Shown: positions 6,781 through 61,315 of the stretch, one piece after another
Layout: each line of letters opens with the position of its first letter
How positions within the stretch are numbered: position 1 is the stretch's first letter
From: Candidatus Enterousia sp.
GTDB taxonomy: Bacteria > Pseudomonadota > Alphaproteobacteria > Rs-D84
Length of the DNA: 64,000 bases
Assembly (NCBI GenBank): GCA_045614145.1
Contig: JAZLCH010000006.1
Coordinates: forward strand, 2,421 to 66,420
Reading direction: 5' to 3'
The notes under the pieces: generated by a model
Told to the model about the DNA's origin: nothing
Databases searched by the model: none
What the model saw: the letters and a program-made list of their open reading frames with translations, nothing else
Program-made: the position numbers and the translations under genes

Positions 6781-7467
6781 ATGCGACGATTTCTGATTGT
6801 TTTTTTAGTGGCCGGATGCGTGAACACAACCAGCCAATTGCCCGGCGGCGAGTTTTTAGGCACGCCATACATAGAATCCCCGCTGGGGGAATCTGTGCCG
6901 CCGGATTCAGACCCGCTGATACGATTTGATGCGTTCGATTGCACAACGTTTGTAGAAACTGTCATGGCCCATGGCAACAAAGAAAAATTAAATAAAATTC
7001 GTTATAAAGACGGAAAAGTTGAATTCTTGAATCGTAATCATTTCATAGAATCTGATTGGTTGTACAATAATTCACAGCGTGTAAAAAATGTCAGTCGTGA
7101 ATATGCACCAACCGCAATTCGCCACGTTGTTATAGACAAAAAAGCATGGCTGAAAAAAGTTCATAAAATTGATTCTGAGCTTGAAGTGCTTGAAATTAAC
7201 CTGGAATATATACCATATAAGTATACAGAGCAGATTGTTATTGATAAAACAATGATTGTACTGTTTGTTGCTGACAATCCAAAAATTCGTGATAAGATAG
7301 GAACAGATTTAGCCGTTGTGCATATGGGATTTGTCCTGCCAGACGGAACATTACGACACGCATCCAGCGAACGCGGTGCAGTTGTTGATGTTCCATTAAC
7401 AGAATACTTAAATGCACGTAAACAAAATAAAAGCAATATTGGTATAGCATTGGTGGAAATAAAATGA
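6781..7467 (+). CDS. Putative lipoprotein, function unknown
   Basis: A lipobox-like FLVAGC N-terminus is present. The product is 228 aa. The stop overlaps the start of tsaD. Confidence 0.4.
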   Translation: MRRFLIVFLVAGCVNTTSQLPGGEFLGTPYIESPLGESVPPDSDPLIRFDAFDCTTFVETVMAHGNKEKLNKIRYKDGKVEFLNRNHFIESDWLYNNSQRVKNVSREYAPTAIRHVVIDKKAWLKKVHKIDSELEVLEINLEYIPYKYTEQIVIDKTMIVLFVADNPKIRDKIGTDLAVVHMGFVLPDGTLRHASSERGAVVDVPLTEYLNARKQNKSNIGIALVEIK

Positions 7468-8585
7468 ACGACGAAAAACTAATCCGTATGGATATGGGGG
7501 CAATTAAGTCCGGCACACACAGCGACCGCCCAACCCTGTGTTTGGGGATTGAATCGTCATGCGACGAAACATCGGCGGCGGTTGTAGACAGTGACAAAAA
7601 TATTTTGGCGCATATTATCTATTCACAAATTCCAGAACACCAAAAATTCGGTGGCGTCGTTCCAGAATTAGCTGCCCGCGCGCATATATTGGCAATAGAA
7701 GACGTGGTAAAACAAACCCTGGACAAGGCAGGCAAAACAATTGATGATATCAACGTCATTGCTGCAACCGCAGGCCCAGGATTAATCGGTGGCGTCTTGG
7801 TCGGATGGATGGCCGCCACAGGCATCGCCCAGGCAACAAAAAAACCACTGGTCGCAGTTAATCATCTGGAAGGACATGCGTTGGTTCCGCGCCTGTGCGC
7901 AACAATGGCGGATGGCACAAATGAAAATATATCTGTTGAATTTCCATATTTGCTGATGCTGGCATCAGGTGGCCATTGCCAAATATTGTTGGTGCGCGGT
8001 GTCGGACAATATGAAATGATTGGTCAAACATTGGACGACAGCGCAGGCGAAGCATATGACAAAGTTGCCAAGATGCTGGGGTTGGGGTATCCAGGCGGCC
8101 CAATTGTTGACAAGCGCGCACAAAGCGGCAATCCACACGCCTTGGCGTTCCCGCGACCATTATGCGACAAGCCAGGCTGTGATTTTTCATTCAGCGGAAT
8201 TAAAACAGCTGCGCGAACCTTTTTAAATCGCACCAACGAAATATTAACCGATGAATATATCAATGATTTTTGTGCTTCGTTCCAGGCGGCAGTCGTTGAC
8301 TGTGTAATAAATCGCCTGAATAACGCAATGAAAGATGAACGCGTTTGTGTGGCCAACCCTAAAACACTGGTGGTTGCAGGTGGCGTCGCAAAAAACAGCG
8401 CAATTCGTGGTGCAATGGAAAAACTAGCACAAAAAAACAAGATGATTTTTGCTGCACCACCAATGAATCTGTGCACTGACAACGGTGCAATGATTGCATG
8501 GGCAGGATTGGAAAATTTTGCCATTGGAAATGTTGTGCACGAACCAATCGCGCCACGCCCACGGTGGCCGTTGACAGAATTATAA
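7464..8585 (+). CDS. tsaD: tRNA N6-adenosine threonylcarbamoyltransferase TsaD (Kae1/Gcp family)
   Basis: Gcp-family motifs GIESSCDETSAAV and HLEGH are present. The true start may lie downstream of the annotated ATG. Confidence 0.85.
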   Translation: MNDEKLIRMDMGAIKSGTHSDRPTLCLGIESSCDETSAAVVDSDKNILAHIIYSQIPEHQKFGGVVPELAARAHILAIEDVVKQTLDKAGKTIDDINVIAATAGPGLIGGVLVGWMAATGIAQATKKPLVAVNHLEGHALVPRLCATMADGTNENISVEFPYLLMLASGGHCQILLVRGVGQYEMIGQTLDDSAGEAYDKVAKMLGLGYPGGPIVDKRAQSGNPHALAFPRPLCDKPGCDFSFSGIKTAARTFLNRTNEILTDEYINDFCASFQAAVVDCVINRLNNAMKDERVCVANPKTLVVAGGVAKNSAIRGAMEKLAQKNKMIFAAPPMNLCTDNGAMIAWAGLENFAIGNVVHEPIAPRPRWPLTEL

Positions 8586-9134
8586 TTGATAAAAACAGAT
8601 TGTTATGTTATACTTTTCGCCATGGATGCCAGGAAAGGACAACAATTTGAAGCTGCGACAAAAAAACTGATCGACCAACTGAATACGATGGGGCTGGACA
8701 ATCGTACACGTATGCAGGCTAAAAATTTTGTTTTACTATTTCGCGACAGTTTTAAGCTTGACAGGGTTAAGCGTGCAACATTTGAGCACACAATAGGCGA
8801 TGACTTAAAATTGTTTACATATGATTCGGACGGTTTTTGTAAGGCTGCCAGTTGCTCTTTTATAGGATTGATGAACAACCCAAAAGAATGGCGTTTAATG
8901 TATATAAATGATATATGGGCATATGGTCCGCATTTTTTTGTTCAACACATTCCCAGCGGTCAACCATTTGATTTGACATATGACCAATATGAACATACTG
9001 GTATTAGCATTCCGTATTATATAGGGCGCCCAATTAAAATGAATGGCGACGCAAAGGATACCGCAGCACGTTTTTTAAAATCTGTTGGGATTGACTTCTC
9101 ACCATTTGTGAACAATAGAAATATAAAAGAGTAA
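8586..9134 (+). CDS. Hypothetical protein
   Basis: ORF of 182 aa. No motif was recognised. Confidence 0.35.
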   Translation: MIKTDCYVILFAMDARKGQQFEAATKKLIDQLNTMGLDNRTRMQAKNFVLLFRDSFKLDRVKRATFEHTIGDDLKLFTYDSDGFCKAASCSFIGLMNNPKEWRLMYINDIWAYGPHFFVQHIPSGQPFDLTYDQYEHTGISIPYYIGRPIKMNGDAKDTAARFLKSVGIDFSPFVNNRNIKE

Positions 9135-9139
9135 ATATT

Positions 9140-10372
9140 ATGCAAAGAACTGAAACAGCAGTGAATAGCGATACCATATTTAGCGTAACAGATGCATCCG
9201 CCCTGCTGAAAGGCGTTGTAGAATCAGCATTCCCACGCATAAAAATCCGTGGTGAATTGTCGCAAATTACGCGCGCGACATCGGGACACATGTATATGAC
9301 GATAAAAGATGCTGGCGCTGCAATTTCTGTTATTATATGGCGCGGAACGCCGGTGGCATTCAAACTGGAAGACGGGTTGGAAGTTATTATCACAGGGCGC
9401 TTTACAACGTACCCTGCCCGCAGCAATTACCAAATTGTCGCCAGCGAAATCGAAATGGCGGGCGTTGGCGCGATTCTTAAAATGCTGGAAGAACGTAAAC
9501 AAAAATTAGCAGCCGAAGGACTGTTTGATGAAAGCAAGAAAAAACCGCTGCCACGACTGCCGCAACGGATTGGTGTCGTAACCAGCCCGACCGGCGCCGC
9601 ATTCCAAGATATTCAAAACAGATTGCGCGAACGCTTCCCGGTACACGTGCTGCTGTATCCGGCAACCGTCCAGGGGGCAGCCGCCGCTGCCGAAGTCGCA
9701 GCAGGGATTGAATATTTTAACAGAATGCGTAATGTCGATGTAATTATTGTTGCACGTGGTGGCGGGTCACTGGAAGACCTGTTGCCATTTTCAGAAGAAA
9801 TTGTTGTACGCGCGGCCGCGGCCAGCCAAATACCGCTGATTTCAGGCGTTGGTCATGAACCAGATTGGATGTTAATTGATTTTGCGGCTGACCATCGTGC
9901 GCCAACACCAACGGGCGCCGCCGAAGCGGTTGTGCCAACAAAACTGGCGTTGATTCAAGAACTGGATAATATGTGGGTTCGATTGTCTGGTAATTTTATG
10001 ACCCGATTAACAAATGCAAAACAACGGATCGAAACAATTAATATAAAAAGTCCAAAACAAGTCCTTATGGAACACACACAACGTCTGGATGATTTGGGCA
10101 GAACAATGAATGTTATAATAGCGTCCAGAATAACAAATGCGCGTCAAAGAATGGAAATCGTTTCCGCGTTCCCAAACATTCTGCAAAATCGCATGTCATC
10201 ACTGGCCCAAGCATTGAATCATATGGGACAAATGTTAAATTCGCTTAGTTATAAAAGCGTACTGTCGCGCGGTTATGCAATCGTTCGCGATGCTAGTAAC
10301 AAAATAATCAGCAGAACTGATTCAGGTCGTCCCGCCAGTATTGAATTTGCAGATGGGATATTGCAGATATAA
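9140..10372 (+). CDS. xseA: Exodeoxyribonuclease VII large subunit
   Basis: An N-terminal OB fold (RIKIRGELSQI) is followed by the conserved XseA catalytic core and a C-terminal helical region. Confidence 0.8.
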   Translation: MQRTETAVNSDTIFSVTDASALLKGVVESAFPRIKIRGELSQITRATSGHMYMTIKDAGAAISVIIWRGTPVAFKLEDGLEVIITGRFTTYPARSNYQIVASEIEMAGVGAILKMLEERKQKLAAEGLFDESKKKPLPRLPQRIGVVTSPTGAAFQDIQNRLRERFPVHVLLYPATVQGAAAAAEVAAGIEYFNRMRNVDVIIVARGGGSLEDLLPFSEEIVVRAAAASQIPLISGVGHEPDWMLIDFAADHRAPTPTGAAEAVVPTKLALIQELDNMWVRLSGNFMTRLTNAKQRIETINIKSPKQVLMEHTQRLDDLGRTMNVIIASRITNARQRMEIVSAFPNILQNRMSSLAQALNHMGQMLNSLSYKSVLSRGYAIVRDASNKIISRTDSGRPASIEFADGILQI

Positions 10373-10375
10373 AAG

Positions 10376-10401
10376 AACCGCCGTTTGGCGGTTTTTCTTT
10401 T
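10376..10401. terminator. Bidirectional intrinsic terminator (xseA and the convergent secreted-protein gene)
   Basis: Hairpin aaccgcc-gtttg-gcggtt is flanked by an A-tract and a T-tract. Confidence 0.55.
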
Positions 10402-10404
10402 TGA

Positions 10405-11655
10405 TTATTTGCTGATGCAATGCGCCAATGATTGCGCGACCAGCGACTGTTCCGTCTGGGACATTTCTGATATTGGCACAACATAGCAACGCGCACTGTC
10501 GCGAATAACAATCACCTTGGTTCCCTGAGAATATGCACGTTGCATATCGTCCATCTGGGCACTGGTTAAAAATGCATTATCAACAAATACATTCGCAGGA
10601 TTCATGCCAGCATTGACAACCTGATATGCGGTTTGATAATCATATATTTCTGAACGTGATGTAACGTTCATCCAAATTGACTGATTTGCATATGGATTTT
10701 CAGCCGCCGTGCCAGATGTCGGGAATGTCGCCCCCAATGCAACCGCAGCAACAGTCTGCAGATTTGATGGCTGGTTCAAATCTGACGAGTGCGAGACAGT
10801 GTTTAATTTCAAATTGTCACCACATGCCAGATTCATGCGATTTGTATAGCCGGCCAACACAGCATCAACAGCAGCCTGCCAATCTGCGCCCTTGTTATTC
10901 AATTCCAAAGACACAATCTTTTCAGCCCAACCAAATATATCCGCCCCAACATTACCAGCAGTGGCGAAACGTGTTACCATTTCTGCGCTGCCCCCCGGAA
11001 TACCTGCGCCACAATAATCAGTCAAGGCGTTGTTTAATTTGCTGTTGGTTTCATTACCATATGCAAGCGCAACCGAGTGGCATGCCATGGCCGCTTCTAA
11101 TTCTTGGCGACGTTTTAGGCACAAATCAGAATTTGATTTTGACAACTGATTGGCCATGGACGACATAGACAGATACGACATAACTTCCTGTTGAACATAT
11201 GATGGACACAAATGCGCCGCAGTGTTCATCCCAGATTTACCGTTAACCGTTCCAACACCATATTGCGGCAGTAAAATTTCAGTATCCTTTTGCAGACACA
11301 GCAAGGCATAATTGTATAATTCGTTTTCAGATGCATATTGGCATTTTGATTCACGCTGGCCCGGGACAATCGTTACATCACCACAATAATCAGACAAACA
11401 TGCAAAAATCTTTTGACGGCACGCGGTATCAACGTCAGGCTGTGCAACCATAAAATATGTATTACGTTGGTTCGTTTTATATGCCTGGGCAATGCCTGCA
11501 TTGCCACGCAAATTTGTGCCCGACGTAGATGGTGCACCAACAATTAAACCACGCCCCTGATTTGGCGCAGCAGTTGTACCAGCAGAAACAGCAAACCCAG
11601 CACCAGCAAACAAAAATGTGCCAATAAATCCGAAGACACCAAAGAAATGTTTCAT
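10405..11655 (-). CDS. Secreted hypothetical protein (signal peptide, Cys-containing, 416 aa)
   Basis: A signal-peptide-like N-terminus FGFIGTFLFAGAGFAVSA is present. No domain was recognised. Confidence 0.45.
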   Translation of the reverse strand: MKHFFGVFGFIGTFLFAGAGFAVSAGTTAAPNQGRGLIVGAPSTSGTNLRGNAGIAQAYKTNQRNTYFMVAQPDVDTACRQKIFACLSDYCGDVTIVPGQRESKCQYASENELYNYALLCLQKDTEILLPQYGVGTVNGKSGMNTAAHLCPSYVQQEVMSYLSMSSMANQLSKSNSDLCLKRRQELEAAMACHSVALAYGNETNSKLNNALTDYCGAGIPGGSAEMVTRFATAGNVGADIFGWAEKIVSLELNNKGADWQAAVDAVLAGYTNRMNLACGDNLKLNTVSHSSDLNQPSNLQTVAAVALGATFPTSGTAAENPYANQSIWMNVTSRSEIYDYQTAYQVVNAGMNPANVFVDNAFLTSAQMDDMQRAYSQGTKVIVIRDSARCYVVPISEMSQTEQSLVAQSLAHCISK

Positions 11656-11742: not shown

Positions 11743-12823
11743 ATGTCAAACATGATTATAGCAACAGACGTTTTATCACAAATCGCCGACGACATTTCTG
11801 CCGTCAGGGGGTTTCTTTGACCCTGAAAATTTAAAATCTCAGATTGAAGAACTGAATACGATTGTTAATGCACCAGATTTATGGAACAATCCGGAAGATG
11901 CACGTGCGGTTTTGCAAAAAAAATCAGGGCTGGAAAAAAAGTTAGGCGAACTAGCCGAACTGGAATCCGAATACCAAACATTATCAGAACTGTATGAAAT
12001 CGCCCCCGATGATGCAGATGTGTTGGATGCAATTGAAAAATTAGGTGACACTGCGCATCGCGCAAAGTTTATCACCCTGTTTCGCGAGCCGGCAGATAAC
12101 AATGGCGCATTTTTATTTATTCAGGCGGGCGCAGGCGGGACCGAGGCCCAGGATTGGGCCCAAATGCTGTCACGCATGTATGCACGATGGGCTGAACGCC
12201 ACGGCTTTACAACCGAAGTTATCGAAGAACACGAAGGCGATACAGCAGGAATTAAAAATATCACATATCGTATATCGGGCGAACGTGTGTATGGGTGGCT
12301 AAAAAATGAAATTGGGGTTCACAGATTGGTTCGAATTTCGCCTTTTAATGCAAACGGCAAACGTCAAACCAGTTTTGCTTCGGTTGATGTGTGGCCTGAT
12401 GTTGATGATACGATTGAAATCGAAATTAATGAAAAAGATTTGCGCATTGATACATATCGCGCATCAGGCGCAGGTGGCCAACATGTCAACAAAACAGACA
12501 GCGCAGTCCGCATTACACATATACCAACAAATACAGTTGTAACATGCCAAAATGAACGCAGCCAAATTCAAAACCGCGAAATGGCAATGAAAATGCTGCG
12601 CAGCAAGTTATATGAATTGGAATTGCAAAAACGGGCCGAGGCCGAGGATGCCGCCAAAGCAGCCCAGAAAAAAATTGAATGGGGCAGCCAAATCAGAAAC
12701 TATGTCCTGTACCCATATCAACTGGTCAAAGATGTTCGCACAGATGTTGAAAAAACAGATTCTGGGGCGGTTCTGGATGGCGACTTGGATGACTTTATGC
12801 TGGCGTCCTTGCAACAGGGATAA
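11743..12823 (+). CDS. prfB: Peptide chain release factor 2, with programmed +1 ribosomal frameshift at CTT TGA C
   Basis: Frame 0 runs 11743-11820 (MSNMIIATDVLSQIADDISAVRGFL) and ends at an in-frame TGA. An internal SD AGGGGG lies at 11806-11811, then TTT, then CTT TGA C. The +1 frame continues DPENLK and carries GGQHVNKTDSAVRITH with the GGQ motif. Confidence 0.85.
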
Positions 12824-12867
12824 GACCACTTGCATTTTATGTGTGAATAATTATAATTGTGACGTTT

Positions 12868-12944
12868 GCACCCGTGGCTTAATTGGATAGAGCATCGCCC
12901 TCCGAAGGCGGGGATTGCGCGTTCGAATCGCGCCGGGTGCGCCA
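12868..12944 (+). tRNA. tRNA-Arg (anticodon CCG)
   Basis: Manual fold: acceptor GCACCCG/CGGGTGC, D-arm GCTT..GAGC with GG, anticodon loop CTCCGAA, T-arm GCGCG-TTCGAAT-CGCGC, 3' CCA encoded. Confidence 0.8.
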
Positions 12945-12961
12945 GTTTTTAGATATAAAAA

Positions 12962-12989
12962 GACCGCCAAATGGCGGTTTCTTATTTTT
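12962..12989. terminator. Bidirectional intrinsic terminator after tRNA-Arg and the convergent lipoprotein gene
   Basis: Hairpin gaccgcc-aaat-ggcggtt is flanked by an A-tract and a T-tract. Confidence 0.55.
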
Positions 12990-13428
12990 CTAACTTATTC
13001 ATTATTCGATTAAGCAGGCGAACAGAACTGTTTGCACAACCGCGACCGCGCCATGTCATGATTTCTGTGCCAGATTTTTGGTCCGCAATCGACATGTTGA
13101 AATTCCACCACCAAAACCCATTCAATGCACACCAAATGGGACGAAATGTTTCAGTGCGTTCGGACACCTTGATGATATATTTGGCATCAGCAGGTATTTT
13201 TGTTTTATCACGATCAATGGTTTCCGACAGCTCGTTTAATTCAACAGCCCCAACCAATACTGTATAACCACGTTCTTCAAAAACTTCTTTGACAGTACGA
13301 CGCATAGAATAACCACCACGATCTGCATAAACTGCCGCGCCTGTATCCATCGTGTTTGGTTTTATATGAATGCTGTTGCATGCGGATAGCGCGAACAAAG
13401 TACAAACAATAAATAAAAATCGATACAT
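12982..13428 (-). CDS. Putative lipoprotein, function unknown
   Basis: The N-terminus has a lipobox, LFALSAC. The product is 148 aa. Confidence 0.45.
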   Translation of the reverse strand: MYRFLFIVCTLFALSACNSIHIKPNTMDTGAAVYADRGGYSMRRTVKEVFEERGYTVLVGAVELNELSETIDRDKTKIPADAKYIIKVSERTETFRPIWCALNGFWWWNFNMSIADQKSGTEIMTWRGRGCANSSVRLLNRIMNKLEK

Positions 13429-13663
13429 AACCGCCCCTGTTTTTTGACAGATATCAGTCTAGACCACCCAAAATTATAATACAAGGGAAAATATTCCCTT
13501 TACTTTAAATGAATTGTGTCCTAGACTGGGACGTGACTGGTATGTTTGCGCATGCCGGTTTAAACAGACGGTGGGTGTTGGCACCTTTATCGGTCGCCGG
13601 TACAAGTTAAAAAACTGCACCAGTTGTTCACCCACCATTCAAACACATACAGGATTACAGATT

Positions 13664-14665
13664 ATGAAGCGTATATTTTTTAGATTAATTGCCCTGTTTT
13701 TTCCTACGCGTAAAATGCGCGCACGCGTCAGACATCTTGGCGATGATCAACACGCACTGCTAATACAATCTGGTATCGACATGGTAAAAGAAACCATGGA
13801 TTTTTCTAAACTGCCACCTGCGCATGGTTATTTGCGACTGACCCAACAGATGAATATAAAATTGTTGGCGGCGTTCACGAAATTTTGCGACCTGAACGGC
13901 ATTGAAAATTTTTTGATTGGCGGGGCAATTATTGGCAAGCTGCGTCATAATGGGCTGATTCCGTGGGATGATGATATTGATATTGCAATTCCTGATCCGC
14001 ATTGGCACAAACTGGTGGATATATTGCGCAATACAGAACTGGGGGATGATTACTGCATATATTTTGGGACACGTTGGAATATGTTAAAGATATGTCACAT
14101 GCCAACCGGATTGTTTGTTGATATTTTTAGATTTTCATTGCTAGATTCTGATATAACCTTTGATAATCATCAGGAATATACTAACCGCAAACACGCGTAT
14201 TCTGTTGCACATACCCAGATGGGATTGAACCTGTATCGTAAACACGCTGTTGATATATTCCCTGGGGATACATTTGAACAAAAAAACGCAAAGATTGACA
14301 AGATATTGGAACATGTACGCAAGGAAGAAGACCTGTTTAATAAACATGTACTTGCCGGGCAACAACCGCAGACAGGATGTGGGTTGGCACACTTTTCTGC
14401 AGACAGCAAACCAAATGAAGTGTTCCCGTACGCAGTAATTTACCCACTGAAAAAAATTGAATTCGAAGGTTATGAATTTTCATTCCCAAATAATCTGGAC
14501 GATTATGCATATATTGTATGGGGTGATATATGGTGCTTCCCAGAACAGCTGGTCATGCACCAAAGCGGAAAACCAGATATAAAAAAGTATTTGATAATGC
14601 GGCACTTCCTTGAAACACCAGATGAAACGATATTTTCAAGCATGTTCAAAACAAAGGGCAAGTAA
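13664..14665 (+). CDS. LicD-family protein (phosphocholine/phospho-alcohol transferase-like, nucleotidyltransferase fold)
   Basis: The LicD hallmark LIPWDDDIDIAIPD is present. The ORF-track start at 13514 is probably an upstream extension; MKRIFF at 13664 is likelier. Confidence 0.55.
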   Translation: MKRIFFRLIALFFPTRKMRARVRHLGDDQHALLIQSGIDMVKETMDFSKLPPAHGYLRLTQQMNIKLLAAFTKFCDLNGIENFLIGGAIIGKLRHNGLIPWDDDIDIAIPDPHWHKLVDILRNTELGDDYCIYFGTRWNMLKICHMPTGLFVDIFRFSLLDSDITFDNHQEYTNRKHAYSVAHTQMGLNLYRKHAVDIFPGDTFEQKNAKIDKILEHVRKEEDLFNKHVLAGQQPQTGCGLAHFSADSKPNEVFPYAVIYPLKKIEFEGYEFSFPNNLDDYAYIVWGDIWCFPEQLVMHQSGKPDIKKYLIMRHFLETPDETIFSSMFKTKGK

Positions 14666-14666
14666 G

Positions 14667-15092
14667 ATGACGGTCGGCGTTGTTGTTGGAACGTTTGATA
14701 TGTTCCATATCGGACATTTGAAGCTGTTGTTGAATGCAATTCAAAATTGTGATTTTTTGATTGCAGGTGTTAACACAGACGCGGTTGTTTTACGTGATAA
14801 AAATAAAAAAACAGTAATTCCTGAACAAGATAGATTAGAAATCATACGCAGTATTTTTTGCGTGTCTGAGGCACACCTGGTTACAGACAATGCAGTTCAA
14901 TTTATTTCTGATTTGTTGTCCCAAGGCAAAAAGATAGACTTCTATTTTCGTGGCAACGAACCCGAGAAACCACATATCTTGGTCGAGAATAAAAAAATCA
15001 CTGACATGGGGGTGACTGTTGTTCAGTTTCCATATACTAAATCTATTTCATCGTCAAAAATTCGCGAAAGGTTGAATAATGAAAAACGCTAA
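14667..15092 (+). CDS. Cytidylyltransferase (TagD/LicC-like HIGH-motif nucleotidyltransferase)
   Basis: The GTFDMFHIGHLKLL HxGH motif is present. The ATG at 14667 follows an RBS-like aaaggg. The stop overlaps the start of the downstream GT2. Confidence 0.6.
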   Translation: MTVGVVVGTFDMFHIGHLKLLLNAIQNCDFLIAGVNTDAVVLRDKNKKTVIPEQDRLEIIRSIFCVSEAHLVTDNAVQFISDLLSQGKKIDFYFRGNEPEKPHILVENKKITDMGVTVVQFPYTKSISSSKIRERLNNEKR

Positions 15093-15975
15093 GATTTCGA
15101 TTATTACAATTTGTTACAACGCAGACAATTTAGAACGCACATGCGAAAGTATTGTAACACAGGATCGTGATGATTTTGAATGGGTCGTTATCGATGGTGG
15201 CAGTTCAGATGAACATCAGAAAATTTTTGATAAATATAAATCGCGAATGGATTATTTTGTGTCAGAACCTGACAAGGGTATTTATGACGCAATGAACAAA
15301 GGTATTTTAGCTGCAACTGGCGAATACGTGATATTTATGAATGCCGGTGATTCATTCTATGATACAAATATTCTTAGCCACGTTATGCGCTTTATGGAGA
15401 CAGATGATTCAGATATTATTTTTGGCGCAGCAAAATGTGATAATGATACAAAAATTGAAAAGCGTGTTATTAGGGTTTTTGACAAAGAAATAAATGATAT
15501 TTTCTGGTTTGATCGCTGCCCACCGCATCAAGCCATGTTTTATAAACGATCTTTGTTTAGTAATGTTGGTATGTACAGGATGGATTATCGTATTATGAGC
15601 GATAAAGTTCAGAATATGCGATTTTATTACGCGGGCGCAAAATATAAATTTATAGACCGTATTATAGCAAATTTTGACACATCTGGTGTGTCAAATAACC
15701 CCAAACAAAAATGTCGTCAATATGTTGAAAGGGCACTGTGGCGGCATGAATTTTATCCCGATTTAATGACGCGTTTTAATGTGTATAATATGACAATATC
15801 TAACGTATGGTATCGACTATTGCGGATTATTTTTTGTTTTTGGCGCAGCAAAAGGAAACATTATGCATTCAGAAGTAAACATCTGACCAGAATCATCAAA
15901 GAAACAAAAAATATATCCAGAAAAGAGATGCATGAAACATTGCGCGAATATTCGCATATATTAAAACCACGGTAA
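15079..15975 (+). CDS. Glycosyltransferase family 2
   Basis: GT2 N-terminus ISIITICYNADN..VIDGGSSD with a DxD-type motif is present. Confidence 0.6.
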   Translation: MKNAKISIITICYNADNLERTCESIVTQDRDDFEWVVIDGGSSDEHQKIFDKYKSRMDYFVSEPDKGIYDAMNKGILAATGEYVIFMNAGDSFYDTNILSHVMRFMETDDSDIIFGAAKCDNDTKIEKRVIRVFDKEINDIFWFDRCPPHQAMFYKRSLFSNVGMYRMDYRIMSDKVQNMRFYYAGAKYKFIDRIIANFDTSGVSNNPKQKCRQYVERALWRHEFYPDLMTRFNVYNMTISNVWYRLLRIIFCFWRSKRKHYAFRSKHLTRIIKETKNISRKEMHETLREYSHILKPR

Positions 15976-15992
15976 AACCGTGGTTTTTTATT
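15967..15992. terminator. Intrinsic terminator after the GT2 gene
   Basis: Hairpin ccacggt-aaa-accgtgg is followed by a T-tract. Confidence 0.55.
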
Positions 15993-16614
15993 CAGACGGG
16001 CCGCACACTTCCCACAATACGCTAAAATCGCTGTTACATATAACACATAAAGTTGTTTGATTTGATGCGCCACCTACTTTTTGTACAATTCTGCCTGTAG
16101 ATGATTCTACAATTGCGGTCAGATTAGTCGTGTATTCTGTAAACTGCATCTTTATAGGGAACGATAAATAATTTTTCCCATTGTTACATCCAACAACTCC
16201 CCCTTGTTCAACCCAGCCTGATTTATATTTTCTATACCAAGTATAGTTATTAGCCGCGGTTGGCATTTGCCATGCAATCACATAATCTGTGCCAGACATA
16301 TCTGTAACACTGTCAGCACGTGCCATGGTGGTGCCGCCCAGGGTTGAACCATCGTGAACACGTATTGTGTTACAATCTGTATCCATTGTAATTTCTCCGC
16401 ATACGCCGGTATAGTTATCGTTTTCGGTACTGTTGCCACGTTTAATCTTTAATTTGCGATTGTTATGCGTATTGTTCAGATATTTTTCAATATTAAATCC
16501 CGTCAGGCGACGACACATTTCACATGTTATGTCGCGGCGTTCTTGCGGGCTGATTGATTCTTCTATAAAACGCGTAAGAGTGTTCAATAAAACCGTTTTA
16601 TCATGTGCAGTCAT
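15988..16614 (-). CDS. Hypothetical protein (208 aa, Cys-containing)
   Basis: The ORF lies downstream of the guanylate-kinase-like gene on the same strand. No motif was recognised. Confidence 0.35.
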   Translation of the reverse strand: MTAHDKTVLLNTLTRFIEESISPQERRDITCEMCRRLTGFNIEKYLNNTHNNRKLKIKRGNSTENDNYTGVCGEITMDTDCNTIRVHDGSTLGGTTMARADSVTDMSGTDYVIAWQMPTAANNYTWYRKYKSGWVEQGGVVGCNNGKNYLSFPIKMQFTEYTTNLTAIVESSTGRIVQKVGGASNQTTLCVICNSDFSVLWEVCGPSE

Positions 16615-16734
16615 AAAATTTTATCCTTTTTTTATTTTGTCTACACCTGTTGTTTAAATAAAAAAAATCAGACCGCCTGCGCTGTGTCTGATTTGTACGT
16701 ATTATACCAAAAAATAGCATAAAAATCAAGCATT

Positions 16735-17328
16735 TTATCGATGACGTTGCAATTCATCAATATGTGCCGCCAAATATGGGTCATACACACCATCAATTGG
16801 GCGTAATATGTAATCTATATTCAGTCCCGCACCAGTAAAATCAGCAGGATTACATGTATTACAGGTACGCACAGCGGTATCATTTGGCATGTTTGCACGC
16901 GATTTTACCGTATCCATATGATTAATTGGTGGCAAGAAATACGCCACACGAAAATCATACTGGGCATCCAACCCATTTTTTTTGAACCAATCAATTAATT
17001 GGCGGGAATATTGAGGCTCGATTACATCATAAATCAAATTTTGCCCCAGATGTTCGTAAATTTCAGTTTCTGGCACGCCATACAGCCATTTTTTATCACC
17101 CGGTTTCCATACCGCGCGGTTTACCCACAGGCGCGTTGCCAGGGGCGCAGAATCAAAATACGCTTCGTCACGGAAGAAATACGGCTTGCCTTCGCTTTCG
17201 CCGTCACGCATGGGGCGCGTAGTTGCGGAACGCAGATTATAAAACAATCCAGATGGCAGTGTTTTATGAATAAAATATGTTTTGCCACTGCCCGAGAGAC
17301 CATTACAAAATAACAATGTTTTTTTCAT
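16735..17328 (-). CDS. Guanylate-kinase-like P-loop protein
   Basis: A Walker A motif GLSGSGKT is present, and the guanylate kinase signature SATTRPMRDGE..YFF. The C-terminal third does not look like Gmk. Confidence 0.45.
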   Translation of the reverse strand: MKKTLLFCNGLSGSGKTYFIHKTLPSGLFYNLRSATTRPMRDGESEGKPYFFRDEAYFDSAPLATRLWVNRAVWKPGDKKWLYGVPETEIYEHLGQNLIYDVIEPQYSRQLIDWFKKNGLDAQYDFRVAYFLPPINHMDTVKSRANMPNDTAVRTCNTCNPADFTGAGLNIDYILRPIDGVYDPYLAAHIDELQRHR

Positions 17329-17378
17329 TTTACCACCTTTAAAAATTATACCCCGCGCATGTGGCGGGGCAGATACAA

Positions 17379-19460
17379 TCAGTCTTCCAAGAAACTGCGC
17401 AATTTACGTGCACGCGTTGGATGTTTCAGCTTGTTCAATGCCTTTTGTTCAATCTGACGGATACGTTCACGGGTAACGCCGATGTATTCACCAACCTCTT
17501 CCAATGTGCTGGTCTTGTTTGTTGACATACCAAAACGCTGGCGCAGGACGGTTTCTTCCTTGGGGTCTAATTCCGACAAGATTTGAGTAACGATTTTACG
17601 CAGATTCTTTTGTGCAGCAGACGTAAATGGATTCTTTGCCGTCTCGTCCGCGATAATTTCAATACGCGAACTATCATCTTCGGTGCCAACTGGTGCTTCT
17701 AATGAAATTGGTTTCAGATTAACTTTCATCGCCTTGTGAATCTTGTCAACCGGCAGATAGATAATCTTTGACAATTCTTCGGCGGTCGGCTGGCGTCCAT
17801 ATTTATGCATGAATTGACGTGATGCGCGCTGAATCTTGTGTATATTATCAATCATGTGCACAGGAATACGTATTGTACGTGCTTGATCGGCAATACTGCG
17901 TGAAATACCCTGTTGAATCCAGTTTGTCGCATAGGTCGAGAATTTGTTCCCTAAGCGATAATCAAATTTATCAACGGCTTTCATCAAACCAATATTTCCG
18001 TCCTGAACCAAGTCCGAAAAATCAAGTCCCAGACCACGATTGCTGGATTTTTTTGCAAATTTGATAACCAATCGCAAGTTTGCCTCAATCATTTCGCGTT
18101 TGGCACGGGCTGCTTCGGCCTGGCCACGACGAACCAGTTCAACAACCTTTTTATATTCAGCTGTTGGTTGACCGGTTTCAGTAGCAATCGCGGTAATGTC
18201 TTCCTGAATTTTCAGAATATCTGCTTCGTGTTTTTTTGCAAATGCACCCCAGGCGGCATTTTTATGCTTGACTAATTTCTTGACCCAGTTGCGGTTCAAT
18301 TCATTGCCAGTGTATTCAGACAAGAAATCTTCGCGCTTAATCTTGTTCGCCATCGCCAAACGTAACAGTTTGCCTTCCAGCCCCATTAACAACTGATCAC
18401 GCTTGGTCAACTGTTCCAAAATTTCTGCAACACGGTCATCGTTCAGACGAATTTTACTGACATGTTCAAATAATTCCAGACGCTGTTTGGTGTACTTCTT
18501 TTCCAATGCCTCATCCGGCGTATCAGATGTTAACAGATTTTCCAAACGCTTGGCCTGAAGTTTCTGCATGCTATTAAAAATACGTTTTATTTTTGCAAAT
18601 AAATCCATGACCATTGGCATCAAAGATTCTTCCATAACTGGAATCGGAACACCAGATGTGCCACGGGGCGTATCTTCCTTTTTGATTCCGTCTTCATCGT
18701 CATCTAAATCTTCGTCTTCGCTATCATCTGCAACAGATGCATCGGCCAGATCATCTAAATCATCGTCATCCAGGTCGTCAACGTGTTCAACCCCCTTGGA
18801 TTTTAAAGTTTCAGACAATGCCGCCAGTGATTTTTGTTCGGCATCACTGGAATACATAACTTCCAGATTGACGATATAGCGCAGGCGAATGTCTTCGTTT
18901 AACAACTGCTGATACCAATCTAGCATGGCCTGGATTGTCATTGGACTTTCGCACAGACCATAGACCATTAAACGGGATGCTGCCTCGATACGTTGGGCAA
19001 TTGCAACCTCGCCTGCGGCGGTCAACAGCTGGACAGTGCCAATTTGCTTTAAATACGATTGAACAGAATCTTGGACACCCAGAACCAACGAACCAGTCTG
19101 ACTGCGTTCTAGCTGTTTTGCATAGTGTTCATAATCATCGTCATTGACATCAACCTGTTCCGCGTCTGCATTTAACAAATTGCGCGTTTTATCACGTGGT
19201 TCTTCATCTTCGGTGTCATAGTAACGACTTAAATCCTGGGGATAATTATCTATATCTAATACTTCCAGTCCCAAATCCTGCTGAAAAAAATCTAACACTT
19301 CTTCGTGTTCGTCAGATGGAACTTCATCCGCTTCGGTTGCAGCATCAAAATCCATGCGTGACATGTACCCAATTTCCATCGCATTGGATGCTAATTTTTG
19401 TAAGTTTTCTGGCAAAGACTCTATCAAAAGTCTTGTTGCTTCGTCCAGTTTTTTCGCCAT
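17379..19460 (-). CDS. rpoD: RNA polymerase sigma factor RpoD (sigma70)
   Basis: The product is 693 aa with an acidic non-conserved region, region 2 (DLVQDGNIGLMKAVDKFDYRLGNKFSTYATNWIQQGISRSIADQARTIRIPVHM) and region 4 (HTH). Confidence 0.95.
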   Translation of the reverse strand: MAKKLDEATRLLIESLPENLQKLASNAMEIGYMSRMDFDAATEADEVPSDEHEEVLDFFQQDLGLEVLDIDNYPQDLSRYYDTEDEEPRDKTRNLLNADAEQVDVNDDDYEHYAKQLERSQTGSLVLGVQDSVQSYLKQIGTVQLLTAAGEVAIAQRIEAASRLMVYGLCESPMTIQAMLDWYQQLLNEDIRLRYIVNLEVMYSSDAEQKSLAALSETLKSKGVEHVDDLDDDDLDDLADASVADDSEDEDLDDDEDGIKKEDTPRGTSGVPIPVMEESLMPMVMDLFAKIKRIFNSMQKLQAKRLENLLTSDTPDEALEKKYTKQRLELFEHVSKIRLNDDRVAEILEQLTKRDQLLMGLEGKLLRLAMANKIKREDFLSEYTGNELNRNWVKKLVKHKNAAWGAFAKKHEADILKIQEDITAIATETGQPTAEYKKVVELVRRGQAEAARAKREMIEANLRLVIKFAKKSSNRGLGLDFSDLVQDGNIGLMKAVDKFDYRLGNKFSTYATNWIQQGISRSIADQARTIRIPVHMIDNIHKIQRASRQFMHKYGRQPTAEELSKIIYLPVDKIHKAMKVNLKPISLEAPVGTEDDSSRIEIIADETAKNPFTSAAQKNLRKIVTQILSELDPKEETVLRQRFGMSTNKTSTLEEVGEYIGVTRERIRQIEQKALNKLKHPTRARKLRSFLED

Positions 19461-20120: not shown

Positions 20121-21581
20121 TTATTTTTTAGAAAAAACATGCGCCCCCATGTAATTAAACATCGCATTAACCGCATTACATTCTTCTAGATAGTTACTTT
20201 GCGCCAGCATAGTCGCCATCGCATCCGTTTCTTGATCCGTCAATGAATATACGTCTTTATCAAGCGCATCTTCGCCTGCAGATTGTTTTGACAATTGATT
20301 TGCAGGCACACCCCATGTCTCTTTACTTGGTTTCTGCTTAGCAAATGCGTCTGTCAATTTCATAAAAGATATAATAAATCGGTACTGTTTTGCCCCCATG
20401 ACAAAAGAATCCAGACTGTCCGACCTTAGATACAGTTCTGAAAATCCGTTATTATCAACAAATTGTAATGTACCACAGGGATTAGTTTTGCCAAAGTGCC
20501 TTAACAAGGCAGGTACATATTGATTTATACCCGTCTTATGTTCTATATCTGCAGCGTTCAACAAATCACTGTCGCGCCTTTTTTTATCTATGATTTTAAT
20601 CAACGAATATGGTGCACCGGAAAACTCGCGCAATTTTATATTGTAAAACGATGCAAAATCTATACAATAGTCTATGACCTGAGTAATATCATTCTTGCGG
20701 TGTCCTGGGCACATACGTTCAAATACAGCAACATTTTCTGGGCTGAGTGTTGTTGGGTCCGCGAAAAATGTTTTCAACACTGAATTTTTTAACATTGCAT
20801 TATTATCTCTTTGGACCCACCCCAGCAAATCATCAAGATTGCCAACAGGCAGATACACATAAACATTATTATTACGAATAAAATTGATTGATTTCTTTGT
20901 GCCAGACGCCCAGTATTGCTTTAATAACCCGTCCCCCAATCCTGGCACCTTGATATATCTTTCTATGTCGGCACCATTTAACAACCTACCTTCGCCGTGC
21001 GATTTTTCCAGATATTTTATAAAATCTGCGGATTCTTGTCGGTCATAAACCGTTAGTCCATTTGAAATACAATAATCCATCATATATCGCATACAATCAT
21101 TCGCGGTTCGAAGTATTATATTTGCATCATTTTTCCACGGTCGAACATTTGTTATCTTATATATTTTTGTGTTTAACCGGTCACGTAAAAGCGCCTGATA
21201 AAAAAGCGGTTTATATTTTGTTTGTAATAACATTGAAGAATCTGGACACGTGATAACACCGCGCCCAACGTGTGCTAATAAATCACGAGCGTTAAGAATA
21301 CCGTACTCTTTATCTAAATCATGCTCACTTAATAAAGCACCTTCGGTATATTTTTTGCGTATGTATTTCGTCATTCCGATATCATCCAAGGGGGCCTTTC
21401 TGTCATTTGGCAAACGTAAATTATAATACCCTGCAAAATTTAAAATATAATCCAACAAATCTTCTTTGTTTTTTATTTCAGGACGCCCTTTTGTAAAATA
21501 CATGCGGTCAAAATCAGCAATGTTATGCTCTGCTCGCAGTCTTTTTCCAAAAAGTATTTTTAGCATTTCTTTGTGTAACAT
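20121..21581 (-). CDS. Hypothetical protein with an internal ~250-aa duplication
   Basis: Two related modules were found: LLDYILNFAGYYNLRLPNDRKAPLDDIG...HDLDKEYGI and VIDYCIDFASFYNIKLREFSGAPYSLIK...ADIEHKTGI. Confidence 0.45.
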   Translation of the reverse strand: MLHKEMLKILFGKRLRAEHNIADFDRMYFTKGRPEIKNKEDLLDYILNFAGYYNLRLPNDRKAPLDDIGMTKYIRKKYTEGALLSEHDLDKEYGILNARDLLAHVGRGVITCPDSSMLLQTKYKPLFYQALLRDRLNTKIYKITNVRPWKNDANIILRTANDCMRYMMDYCISNGLTVYDRQESADFIKYLEKSHGEGRLLNGADIERYIKVPGLGDGLLKQYWASGTKKSINFIRNNNVYVYLPVGNLDDLLGWVQRDNNAMLKNSVLKTFFADPTTLSPENVAVFERMCPGHRKNDITQVIDYCIDFASFYNIKLREFSGAPYSLIKIIDKKRRDSDLLNAADIEHKTGINQYVPALLRHFGKTNPCGTLQFVDNNGFSELYLRSDSLDSFVMGAKQYRFIISFMKLTDAFAKQKPSKETWGVPANQLSKQSAGEDALDKDVYSLTDQETDAMATMLAQSNYLEECNAVNAMFNYMGAHVFSKK

Positions 21582-23310: not shown

Positions 23311-24420
23311 TTACATCCCCAACAGGTCTTCGTATAATTTAATCGTATCACGCGCCATTTTCTTTGCAGTATAACGTTCTTTGTAACGCGCATATGCCAG
23401 GATACCTAATTTAGTACGCAGTGTCGGTGTTTCCATAACACGTATCATCTGACGCGCGTATTCGTCTGTATCTAATTCACCTTTTTCATTACTGCGAACA
23501 ATTATTGCAGCTTTGCCAAACATTTCAACCAGACCTGCGGCATCACTGCTGATAATTGGCATGTCGTATGCCATTGCCTCAATCCCGGCGAAAGAACATG
23601 CCTCAGAATACGACGCAAATAATGCACAATCGCACATTTCATAATATTTTTTGATATCTTCTGGGTTTTCCAACAACCCAATCTTGGTAATTGGCAGACC
23701 TTCGATTTTTTCAAAAATTTTATCGTCTGGCGCAAAACCACCAACAACAATAACTTCTATTTTATGTGTTTCTGCGACCTTTTTAATTGCCGGAATGATA
23801 CGCTCCATCCCCTTGTGACCGCCCCAACCGTGCGCAAACAAGAAACGAAATACACCGTCTTTTGGTTTCGCCTTTAGGTTAACCTTTGGGATATCGATAC
23901 CATTATATATAACCGTATGCGGCTGTTTATTCTTGACCCCGTCCAAGAATTCGCGACCGTGTTCACAGACCAATATTACATGATCCATGTTGAAAAACGC
24001 GTTGTTTGGCGGAAATTTCCCGTCACTGCCACGTGAACGATGCGGCAGACAATGCAAAACACCAACCGTTTTTGCATAAAAACGCGAACGCAAAGAATAC
24101 GCCAAACCTTCAAACCCCAGACAATTACTTTTGATAATTAAATTTTCCATCTGTGCAACCTTGGGGCCGATATAGGCAATCACCGCCTCGAACAAGACAG
24201 AACCAGGAAATCCCGTTGGATGATAGACAGAAATTTCATCGCCATTTTGTTTAATGGTCAATTCTTTAAATTCTGGCGACCAATAGAATATGATACGCAT
24301 CGTCTTGATGTGCTCGGGCATTTGCGCCGACAAAATACTTAAATAACGTTCAATACCAGACTGAAACCGCGCATCGCGTCCGTCAATTTCAATAATATTA
24401 ATTATTTTTTTCTTTTTCAT
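23311..24420 (-). CDS. Glycosyltransferase family 1 (GT4-like)
   Basis: The C-terminal GT-B motif EACSFAGIEAMAYDMPIISS is present. Confidence 0.6.
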   Translation of the reverse strand: MKKKKIINIIEIDGRDARFQSGIERYLSILSAQMPEHIKTMRIIFYWSPEFKELTIKQNGDEISVYHPTGFPGSVLFEAVIAYIGPKVAQMENLIIKSNCLGFEGLAYSLRSRFYAKTVGVLHCLPHRSRGSDGKFPPNNAFFNMDHVILVCEHGREFLDGVKNKQPHTVIYNGIDIPKVNLKAKPKDGVFRFLFAHGWGGHKGMERIIPAIKKVAETHKIEVIVVGGFAPDDKIFEKIEGLPITKIGLLENPEDIKKYYEMCDCALFASYSEACSFAGIEAMAYDMPIISSDAAGLVEMFGKAAIIVRSNEKGELDTDEYARQMIRVMETPTLRTKLGILAYARYKERYTAKKMARDTIKLYEDLLGM

Positions 24421-24524: not shown

Positions 24525-25037
24525 TTATTCTGTTACCACAGGCATGGGCTGAGGCATTTCTGGCGCCGCAGGCTGGGGCATGTTTGATTTATTTTTACGA
24601 AACATTTTACGTGCCGCACGAAATTCTTTACGATTCACACAACCATCTTTATCAATGTCCATAACAGGTAACATTTCTGCCATCTTTGGGCATTTTACAA
24701 CCAAGCAGCCATTTTCAAATTCTGGACGTGGTGCCATTTTGCCACGTTTGTTCATCGGACAAAATTTGGCAGCAGCAAACCCCATGGCAAATATAATCAA
24801 AAACACAATTAATTTTTTTACAAAACGACCAAAAGTACATTTTTTGTGTCCGCAATGTCCATGACATGCACAACCGTGCGAACAGGCGCATTCATGCGAA
24901 CAGGCACATTCATGCGTCTCAACAACAGCAACCGGCGCAACTTTCTTTACAGCAGCTTTTTTAACAACGGGTTTAGAAATTGTTTTTTTTGCAACAGTTT
25001 TTTTTGTTGCAGGTTTTTTATTCGATTTTTCTGCCAT
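24525..25037 (-). CDS. Membrane protein with a Lys/Ala-rich histone-H1-like N-terminus, a Cys/His-rich cluster and a canonical EF-hand loop
   Basis: The N-terminus KKPATKKTVAKKTISKPVVKKAAVKK is followed by HECACSHECACSHGCACHGHCGH, then a TM helix IVFLIIFAMGFAAA, then DIDKDGCVNRKE, which matches DxDxDGxVxxxE. Confidence 0.45.
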   Translation of the reverse strand: MAEKSNKKPATKKTVAKKTISKPVVKKAAVKKVAPVAVVETHECACSHECACSHGCACHGHCGHKKCTFGRFVKKLIVFLIIFAMGFAAAKFCPMNKRGKMAPRPEFENGCLVVKCPKMAEMLPVMDIDKDGCVNRKEFRAARKMFRKNKSNMPQPAAPEMPQPMPVVTE

Positions 25038-46554: not shown

Positions 46555-46771
46555 TTTTTGCCCTTTTGGTTTATATAAAAAAACAGACGCAGAAATGTGC
46601 GCCCGCAGCTGTTATTCTGTTGGTCGCACCGTACTAGTTAAAACGTTTAAATAAAATCCTCATCTGTTTTGCGCCATATATCTTTTGCATGAATTATATA
46701 TACCTTTTGCGAAAAGTAAAGTAGAAAATATAACTGTTGACAAAACACACATTACGTACTACGCTCTCCGC

Positions 46772-59677: not shown

Positions 59678-59753
59678 GGCCCCATCGTCTAGAGGCCTAG
59701 GACACCGCCCTTTCAAGGCGAGAACACCGGTTCGAATCCGGTTGGGGCTGCCA
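59678..59753 (+). tRNA. tRNA-Glu (anticodon TTC)
   Basis: Manual fold: acceptor GGCCCCA/TGGGGCT, D-region GTCTAGAGGCCTAGGAC typical of tRNA-Glu, anticodon loop CTTTCAA, T-arm ACCGG-TTCGAAT-CCGGT, CCA encoded. Confidence 0.8.
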
Positions 59754-61290: not shown

Positions 61291-61315
61291 ATCATCACCC
61301 CTTTAATTACAATTT

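Follow-up and report, generated by a model that had tools for sequence, protein, structure and literature searches.

The locus described here raises the question of what three glycan-modifying genes do on the chromosome of a gut alphaproteobacterium, and why the gene that converges on them encodes a protein resembling a bacteriophage tail fibre. The window, by which is meant the whole stretch of 64,000 nucleotides that was analysed, derives from Candidatus Enterousia sp. (contig JAZLCH010000006.1). A first-pass annotation had read the three genes, which encode a LicD-family transferase, a cytidylyltransferase (CTase) and a GT2 glycosyltransferase, as a horizontally acquired system for glycan decoration. 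The trio is very probably a decoration module for a cell-envelope glycan which uses a cytidine diphosphate (CDP)-activated alcohol. Comparison with related loci showed, with high confidence, that this cassette is one allele of a hypervariable, recombining glycan locus and that it is physically coupled to the tip of the fibre. What the fibre tip does with the product of its neighbours is a more tentative matter, which is weighed below.

The cassette and the convergent fibre gene

The genes and signals of the locus are as follows.

13664..14665, + strand: LicD-family phosphotransferase, 333 aa (PF04991)
14667..15092, + strand: HxGH nucleotidyl(cytidylyl)transferase (the CTase), 141 aa, TagD/ECT/CCT superfamily (PF01467)
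15079..15975, + strand: GT2 glycosyltransferase, 298 aa, WcaE-like (PF00535)
15967..15989, between the convergent stop codons of the GT2 and fibre genes: hairpin CCACGG-TAAAA-CCGTGG followed by T6, read from the sequence
15988..16614, − strand: phage tail-fibre-like protein, 208 aa (PF18454, structure matches, phrog_9648)
15988..16197, − strand: allele-specific 'LicD-type tip', encoded by the final 69 codons of the fibre gene and hypervariable in the family

The three co-oriented open reading frames (ORFs) on the + strand (13514–14665, 14610–15092 and 15079–15975) were borne out as LicD, CTase and GT2 genes, and the three domains named for them all scored above the Pfam gathering scores. LicD (PF04991) was matched with 86.5 bits against a gathering score of 22.6 (E=3.8e-24, profile positions 1–221/227), CTP_transf_like (PF01467) with 61.1 bits against 21 (E=1.7e-16) and Glycos_transf_2 (PF00535) with 78.7 bits against 23.3 (E=6.5e-22), the last over residues 7–142, which form the N-terminal GT-A domain. 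The motifs quoted in the first-pass annotation, IPWDDDIDIAIPD for LicD and GTFDMFHIGH for the CTase, were both found in the translations. The likely start of LicD is the ATG at 13664, giving a protein of 333 aa, the same length as a 100% identical database protein (P0001), while that of the CTase is the ATG at 14667, giving 141 aa as in P0242 (96% identity). The genes had been described as overlapping; this holds for the CTase and GT2 genes, which share 14 nt, but with the likely starts the LicD stop codon lies 1 nt before the CTase ATG. The three genes form a tight operon.

LicD has a short, conserved, hydrophobic N-terminus, MKRIFFRLIALFFPTRKMR. In alignment A1 the invariant GxxRHxGxIPWDDDxD, the DxF and the C-terminal His were all present, a core common to FKRP, and the LicD profile aligned with the catalytic domain of human FKRP (6kaj, E=3.9e-11). 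The GT2 protein can be assigned generically only, its best equivalog, TIGR04009 (WcaE), having scored 105.7 bits, below the cut-off of 369.2; it is an accessory member of the cassette and is missing in most LicD–CTase relatives. None of the three proteins has a signal peptide or a transmembrane segment, so they would work at the cytoplasmic face. The cassette encodes neither a flippase nor a polymerase or ligase, and an Rfam search upstream of LicD revealed no riboswitch or leader. The hairpin between the convergent stop codons, which the automatic scan did not list, is a candidate bidirectional terminator.

Formation of a CDP-activated alcohol and its movement as a phosphodiester onto a glycan, as originally proposed, is sensible chemistry for an operon of a LicD phosphotransferase, a nucleotidyltransferase and a GT2. 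The HxGH enzyme would activate an alcohol phosphate with cytidine triphosphate (CTP), the likeliest substrate being presumably sn-glycerol-3-phosphate; LicD would place the alcohol-phosphate on a sugar hydroxyl and the GT2 would supply or extend the sugar. A cassette with no flippase, polymerase or ligase would have to feed a pathway encoded elsewhere.

The CTase had been termed TagD/LicC-like, and one half of that description stands. Its closest solved relatives are of the TagD/ECT type, namely human ethanolamine-phosphate cytidylyltransferase (ECT; 3elb, 1.5e-15), Bacillus subtilis TagD (1coz, 3.6e-11, full length) and, weakest among them, CCT (3e-5). It is not LicC-like, as the enzyme belongs to PF01467 (HxGH) and gave no match to NTP_transferase, the fold of LicC. 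The HxGH motif is present, and the lysines of a KNK align with those in the KQK of TagD (1coz). Relatives linked to LicD are 60–80% identical to the CTase. Modules consisting of LicD and a CTase alone were found at L001–L005, L239, L242 and L243 (related loci are referred to by such numbers), and the minimal module is therefore best explained by activation of a metabolite for which the cassette has to supply neither kinase nor reductase nor transporter, such as a ubiquitous alcohol phosphate. Conversion of sn-glycerol-3-phosphate to CDP-glycerol, with transfer of glycerol-phosphate, would be the most economical route, and we place it only just under an even chance. Counting against so definite an assignment, the CTase scored 48.1 bits with the TagD/TarD equivalog TIGR01518 (cut-off 165.4) and 64.9 bits with TIGR02199 for RfaE/HldE domain II (cut-off 181.5), and the TagD signature RTEGISTT is degenerate, reading YTKSISSS in the CTase and YTQRISTT or YTSNISSS in its relatives; the substrate is therefore not readable from the sequence. 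Database entries naming the CTase a 'glycerol-3-phosphate cytidylyltransferase' carry automatic labels and were not used as evidence.

The right border first given to the element, at 15975, took in the operon but left out a functionally linked convergent gene at 15988–16614, so that the tail-fibre-like partner was overlooked. The fibre gene lies 13 bases past the GT2 stop codon, in convergent orientation, with the hairpin and T-run between. Its product is laid out as three N-terminal helices, an Mtd_N beta-prism, a conserved WYRKYKSGWVEQGG and a beta-sandwich receptor-binding tip. Pfam matched Mtd_N (PF18454) with 34.9 bits against 26.3 (E=1.4e-8), the profile matched BPP-1 Mtd (1yu0-4, E=1.2e-13), the PHROG match was the tail protein phrog_9648 and some members of the family carry PF21882. 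An AlphaFold2 model had a predicted local distance difference test score (pLDDT) of 85.6 overall and >94 in the C-terminal beta-sandwich. Foldseek with this model returned the R2 pyocin fibre foot (3.5e-5), Mtd, Acinetobacter phage AP22 gp53 and the receptor-binding domain of a cyanophage tailspike, and in BFVD it matched 92 viral predicted structures, mostly annotated as tail fibres. Judged by sequence and modelled structure, the protein is a bona fide tail-fibre homologue, a minimal distal fibre with a predicted gp53/R-pyocin-like tip. In a genuine phage contig (L172), close homologues of 138 and 171 aa are encoded where the tail module ends.

The family comprises >4,400 members, with lengths typically of 155–235 aa among the best 120 listed, and the few that are named belong to 'Alphaproteobacteria bacterium' metagenome-assembled genomes (MAGs). 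In alignment a conserved N-part ending in WYRKYKSGWVEQGG is followed by a hypervariable tip of ∼68 aa, which in the model does not have a C-type-lectin fold (Foldseek). The ratio of nonsynonymous to synonymous substitution (dN/dS) of 0.07–0.2 indicates purifying selection on the fibre gene, and a promoter-like site for it was located at 16729–16701. Its neighbours in the window include the genes for RpoD, TrcR, CysS, PrfB and XseA. A diversity-generating retroelement was rejected as the cause of tip variability, since there is no reverse transcriptase ORF near the gene and there are no template/variable repeats; no repeat >29 nt occurs in 12800–17400.

Exchange of the cassette together with the fibre tip

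The tracts exchanged between relatives, and the features that border on them, are listed below.

13638..16194: allelic replacement unit relative to L087, comprising LicD, CTase, GT2 and the fibre tip (blastn)
15400..17400: imported divergent tract relative to L086, extending over the P-loop gene and the entire fibre gene into the C-terminal two-thirds of GT2 (sliding identity)
16735..17328, − strand: P-loop protein, 197 aa, phage guanylate kinase-like (phrog_1815, E=1.7e-11)
12982..13428, − strand: predicted lipoprotein, 148 aa, the conserved left flank of the variable segment
12868..12944, + strand: tRNA-Arg(CCG) (ARAGORN; Rfam 62.6 bits)

Comparison of the window with L087 by blastn showed that homology at 81% identity stops at 13637 and picks up at 90% from 16195. 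Between these breakpoints L087 contains a GT2 (368 aa), a GT4 (384 aa) and an unrelated fibre tip, while the first 139 residues of the two fibres are 94% identical. A second relative, L086, is near-identical to the window, with 94–99% identity in housekeeping proteins and 97% in LicD (dN/dS 0.05) and the CTase. Nucleotide identity between the two, 94–98% in sliding comparison, drops to 59–71% at 15400–16200 and amounts to 73–80% up to 17400. The valley at 15400–16200 covers the acceptor-side two-thirds of the GT2 and the fibre tip, with divergence greatest where the 3' end of the GT2 gene meets the tip: residues 1–107 of the GT2 are identical at the protein level and residues 108–298 are strongly diverged. 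The proportion of synonymous differences (pS) is 0.7–0.84 inside the tract, near saturation, and 0.08–0.2 in the flanks, and the tract is therefore imported DNA. Accelerated evolution of the tip in situ was rejected, as synonymous sites within the tract are near saturation too. These data show that exchange occurs by homologous recombination and that the exchanged unit always includes the 3' end of the convergent fibre gene. The P-loop gene lies directly upstream of the fibre gene, inside the tract, and its product is 79% identical to that of L086; the match to TIGR03263 (1.3e-7) is far under the cut-off, so that it is not a bacterial Gmk at the equivalog level. This gene is missing at the other fibre loci and its membership of the module is uncertain.

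Horizontal acquisition, inferred originally from the position of the cassette after a tRNA gene, was upheld in that the segment is exchangeable DNA, but not as a tRNA-targeted island. No integrase was found at the locus in the ORF list or with Pfam, no tRNA-derived direct repeat or att-like repeat lies near the tRNA-Arg and the bounds of the replacement (13637/16195) are away from it; a tRNA-associated island was rejected on these grounds. The tRNA-Arg falls within the collinear block common to the window and L087 and also adjoins the locus in L089, its surroundings being kept in these relatives with other cassettes. It is a conserved landmark beside the locus and not an integration scar. The lipoprotein next to it shares 95% identity with its counterpart in L086 and 82% with that in L087, and gave no Pfam or PHROG match. 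When G+C content (GC) was compared with the backbone (0.433 +/- 0.037), LicD fell within the range (0.411), the CTase was atypical (0.367) and the GT2 was the lowest among 56 window genes (0.347, z=-2.3). Nor is such a cassette unusual for an alphaproteobacterium, as had been supposed, since LicD loci are frequent among MAGs of gut Alphaproteobacteria (L006, L007, L009, L029, L034 and L042), among which L006 has an independently assembled GT2–LicD–CTase trio between housekeeping genes. A scan of species-representative genomes returned no LicD relative above 30% identity; close relatives came from metagenome and MAG look-ups only.

The relatives derive from rumen, faecal and other gut metagenomes, some being labelled as reduced-genome Rs-D84/Enterousia-like. 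A convergent operon lies within ∼150 bp of the fibre gene, mostly ≤60 bp, in 35 of the 38 bacterial loci with enough flank, and the three without one are phage-like. The first three operon genes were surveyed (72 proteins, 26 non-redundant loci). GT2 (13), GT4 (7), hexapeptide acyltransferases (6), LicD (5) and HxGH CTases (5) were the commonest families, and GT8, RgpF, CMP-sugar synthetases, Maf-like proteins, WbsX and WbqC were also found. Positions 4–8 are similar in content, and the families listed for them include no flippase, polymerase or ABC exporter. Fibres of a second architecture, which combine a T7-tail-fibre-like N-terminus and a coiled coil with a tip of this kind, are likewise encoded beside a glycan operon. 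One alternative fibre-linked cassette consists of phosphoenolpyruvate mutase, a thiamine pyrophosphate-dependent decarboxylase and an Fe-alcohol dehydrogenase, and its gene content identifies it as a predicted route of phosphonate decoration (aminoethylphosphonate/hydroxyethylphosphonate type).

The LicD-type tip is 44–54% identical across window/L086, L001-4 and L005 and ∼44% identical in L239; the flanks of these loci are unrelated, and in each the fibre gene adjoins a LicD–CTase pair. The same tip is common to all fibre genes adjoining a LicD–CTase pair that lacks a gene for a short-chain dehydrogenase/reductase (SDR). In L239, one of five lineages in which this type of tip accompanies LicD–CTase, a T7-like N-terminal adaptor replaces Mtd_N and the LicD-type tip is kept. 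A phmmer search of 1.84 billion representative proteins with this tip gave 2 matches only, and the one whose contig was read (L239) adjoins CTase–LicD. No LicD-type tip was found in 70 viral loci by tblastn of all tips. LicD–CTase pairs of the same subfamily do occur with no fibre gene (L006, L240 and L242/L243), and dependence therefore runs from tip to cassette and not the converse. When all pairs are taken together, cassette sharing correlates with the identity of the tip (Spearman 0.18, p=9e-4) but not with that of the conserved N-part. L144 and L241 have fibres of 71% identity over their full length; their cassettes have only a LicD in common, at 35% identity, and the activating enzymes are non-homologous, an IspD–SDR fusion in L144 and an HxGH CTase with a separate SDR in L241. 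At L144 (9998–14073) two paralogous LicD genes follow the fibre gene in the same orientation, together with a gene whose 456-aa product joins an IspD-like cytidylyltransferase to an SDR; this fusion is Bcs1/TarIJ-like and would probably make CDP-ribitol. The gene set is a bacterial look-alike of ISPD–FKTN–FKRP, the mammalian tandem ribitol-phosphate pathway.

Binder, acceptor or remnant

In the explanation preferred here, the fibre tip would be a lectin-like domain for receptor binding whose specificity matches the epitope made by the neighbouring cassette, so that a receptor and the protein that binds it would pass on together as a single unit. Binding of the cassette's product by the tip is held tentatively and falls short of an even chance; the whole statement, that a decoration cassette is coupled to a fibre tip matched to its glycan, appears evenly balanced. 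Several points weigh against it. The pairwise correlation between tip and cassette is weak and largely the contribution of one clade, and pairs exist, such as L097/L133, in which tips of 45% identity accompany unrelated cassettes. Joint replacement of tip and cassette could be a by-product of the recombination tract, since the two abut physically. In IMG/VR no LicD-type tip was found on a phage fibre using tip-specific patterns. No phage structural gene, and no particle to carry the fibre, was recognised among the annotatable or scanned ORFs of the window, which are housekeeping or unknown, and the fibre lacks a signal peptide. The cassettes have no flippase, polymerase or exporter and include GT8, GT-D and MptE/Maf-like proteins, which are families typical of cytoplasmic protein O-glycosylation, with CMP-sugar synthetases alongside.

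These last features favour an arrangement in which the fibre is the acceptor, the cassette enzymes glycosylating and phospho-decorating it in the cytoplasm so that enzyme and substrate co-vary, as with serine-rich-repeat adhesins, flagellins and mycobacteriophage virion proteins. The joint divergence of the acceptor-side half of the GT2 and the tip relative to L086 would agree with this, as would the action of the eukaryotic LicD relatives FKTN and FKRP on a protein-linked glycan. Nevertheless, the fibre-less LicD–CTase pairs of the same subfamily (L006, L240, L242/243) must have another acceptor, the tip folds like lectins and like the receptor-binding domains found on phage and pyocin fibres, and the genes face each other across a hairpin and hence are not co-transcribed; we regard a modified fibre as quite unlikely. 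It is also unlikely that the fibre and the cassette are prophage debris, a fibre and a serotype-conversion module left by decayed temperate phages whose adjacency is historical and has no glycan-tied role. Phage host-recognition islands do combine tail fibres and glycosyltransferases (PMC7029224), BPP-1-like remnants (Bbp19, a truncated portal and a truncated terminase) adjoin the module in L001, the P-loop neighbour is phage-like, the GT2 weakly resembles GtrB and both kinds of fibre N-terminus are phage adaptor domains. Against decay stand the intactness of a gene kept under purifying selection across deep divergence, the size of the family and the usual length of its members. Moreover, the position of the fibre beside glycan cassettes is constant across genera in syntenic housekeeping contexts (L005 vs L089, window vs L087), and most loci have no other recognised phage gene within 10 kb.

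Two further alternatives concern the chemistry of the cassette. The phosphocholine decoration put forward originally would make it a horizontally acquired lic-type system placing a host-mimicking group on lipopolysaccharide, in an island beside the tRNA-Arg. The classical phosphocholine transferases do belong to the LicD family, the best NCBIfam match of LicD was the Mycoplasma fermentans cholinephosphotransferase Mf1 (1.4e-15), eukaryotic CCT lies within the HxGH superfamily, the habitat is the gut and the GC of the GT2 and CTase genes is low. Nothing specific supports it, however. The Mf1 match, at 58 bits, misses its cut-off of 225, the CTase does not belong to the LicC type, the weakest match among its solved relatives is to CCT, and a check for the choline kinase LicA and the permease LicB in the cassette, its neighbours and the scanned unannotated ORFs of the 64-kb window was negative. 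LicD enzymes also transfer phosphoethanolamine, FKRP transfers ribitol-phosphate and Mf1 itself takes both CDP-choline and CDP-ethanolamine (PMC11982090). With neither an integrase nor an att repeat, and with a tRNA-Arg context that is ancestral to strains with other cassettes, phosphocholine decoration is considered very unlikely. The possibility that the CTase is a housekeeping nucleotidyltransferase, either CoaD or the ADP-heptose-forming domain II of RfaE/HldE, and no more than a neighbour of LicD can practically be dismissed. The top NCBIfam (6.9e-18) and PHROG (phrog_7878, 1.1e-16) matches of the CTase were RfaE domain II/HldE-like and there were weak matches to CoaD, but all scores are far under the equivalog cut-offs. 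The CTase gene is translationally coupled to LicD, is co-inherited with it in at least eight lineages and is missing from the same locus in L087, which has the same backbone; on this gene content the enzyme is taken not to be a housekeeping one.

A tip that binds the glycan is favoured over a tip that serves as substrate because of the fibre-less LicD–CTase pairs, the exchange of the adaptor in L239 and the fold of the tip. Were binding to be correct, the matched pair might allow gut Alphaproteobacteria with reduced genomes to address self or kin in a greenbeard-like manner, with the fibre mounted on a phage-like particle, an extension that is speculative and unlikely. Candidate particles for the orphan fibre would be a gene transfer agent (GTA), a tailocin, a resident prophage or the progeny of an infecting phage, and its adaptor domains, of Mtd_N type or T7 type, would be interchangeable. 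Such a particle would target just those cells bearing the glycan type encoded beside the fibre gene. The context matters, as thousands of uncultured gut Alphaproteobacteria retain an intact orphan fibre gene beside a hypervariable glycosyltransferase cassette. If the tip does recognise its neighbour's product, each locus would be an entry in a dictionary, readable from sequence, of lectin-like domains paired with the enzymes that build their ligands, of use for predicting phage receptors and mining glycan-binding proteins, and would hint at an as yet undescribed means of self-addressing, whether a particle or a surface system, in organisms that still cannot be grown.

Other features and known systems

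Several further features of the window and of related loci were recorded. Between TsaD and XseA a 182-aa ORF (8586–9131, + strand; GC 0.377; no Pfam or PHROG match) forms a second sharp valley of divergence, with 62% amino acid and 64–68% nucleotide identity to L086/L087 between flanks of 93–98%. A 486-aa ORF between TrcR and CysS (20124–21581, − strand; GC 0.372; no Pfam/PHROG match) is missing in the otherwise collinear L086 and is thus an insertion/deletion polymorphism. Glycosyltransferases are scattered elsewhere in the window, namely a GT4 (23314–24420, − strand), a low-GC GT2 (46685–47848, + strand; 0.358) and a weak GT2-like ORF (26164–27012, + strand); the homologue of this GT4 in L087 is encoded immediately upstream of the fibre. 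A 170-aa protein with a lysine/alanine-rich N-terminus (24528–25037, − strand) contains a Cys/His repeat, HECACSHECACSHGCACHGHCGH, and is possibly metal-binding. At the right end of the window a large serine recombinase (59716–61290; Resolvase, Recombinase and Zn_ribbon_recom domains) abuts tRNA-Glu (59678–59753) and is followed by low-GC ORFs with no function assigned (61515–62375 and 62455–63642); the region 59678–63642 is probably an integrated element.

In L001 the BPP-1-like remnants (7073–9624) comprise Phage_Bbp19, a 407-aa head–tail connector and a truncated 282-aa T7-type terminase and lie within ∼1 kb of the LicD–CTase–fibre module, the nearest gene at 616 bp. A 189-aa protein in L157 (7374–10558), located after an 836-aa coiled-coil protein and before acetate kinase, joins an Mtd_N part to an unrelated C-terminus with no glycan cassette, and these genomes therefore hold several small proteins headed by Mtd_N. 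L240 has a reverse transcriptase gene (RVT_1) and a Pom-family gene (10395–11432) 3.9 kb from its fibre-less LicD–CTase–Stealth cassette.

Taken alone, the LicD–CTase–GT2 trio is an ordinary member of the known decoration cassettes, and it is not a lic1 system. It resembles lic1 (licABCD; lipooligosaccharide or teichoic acid of Haemophilus, Neisseria and Streptococcus pneumoniae) and Mf1 in the LicD-family transfer of a group from a CDP-alcohol to a sugar as a phosphodiester, and lic1 also in having the activating enzyme encoded adjacent. It differs in that LicA and LicB are absent from the locus and the activating enzyme has the HxGH (TagD/ECT/CCT) fold in place of the NTP_transferase fold of LicC. 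With TagD/TarD, ISPD–FKTN–FKRP (CDP-ribitol) and Haemophilus influenzae Bcs1 it shares the combination of a small cytidylyltransferase with one or more LicD-fold polyol-phosphate transferases, although the CTase is a distant relative of TagD/TarD with an altered signature and the cassette has no reductase.

The fibre is comparable to BPP-1 Mtd, having a homologous Mtd_N beta-prism in a short distal fibre with specificity at the C-terminus. Unlike that system it has no C-type-lectin domain, reverse transcriptase or template/variable repeats, and variation arises by allelic recombination as opposed to mutagenic retrohoming. R-type pyocin (6cl6) and RcGTA fibres, whose targets are the LPS or capsule of the producing species, resemble it in the foot-like tip of R2 pyocin and in being chromosomal fibres that must match a kin surface polysaccharide, whereas no tailocin or GTA structural genes were seen in the sequence examined here. 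To our knowledge, physical linkage of a fibre gene to glycan genes has not been reported for pyocins or RcGTA. The chromosomally encoded fibres of RcGTA bind the producer species' own polysaccharide (PMC10218006).

A literature search on chromosomal tail-fibre/glycan-cassette loci or Mtd_N proteins in Alphaproteobacteria returned phage examples only, and nothing was found that describes a chromosomal glycan cassette permanently bordered by an orphan fibre gene with which it is exchanged. In phage P22 the tailspike gene (gene 9) adjoins gtrABC. Among phage genomes, those of pelagimyophages have host recognition clusters in which tail fibres and glycosyltransferases are intermingled, and these place tail-fibre and glycan-modifying genes adjacent in a hypervariable segment as at the present locus (PMC7029224). 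In contrast to these phage modules, the pair in the window stands alone on a bacterial chromosome between housekeeping genes, with no integrase or virion genes, and loci of its type are conserved across genera with the fibre tip and the cassette swapped as one unit.

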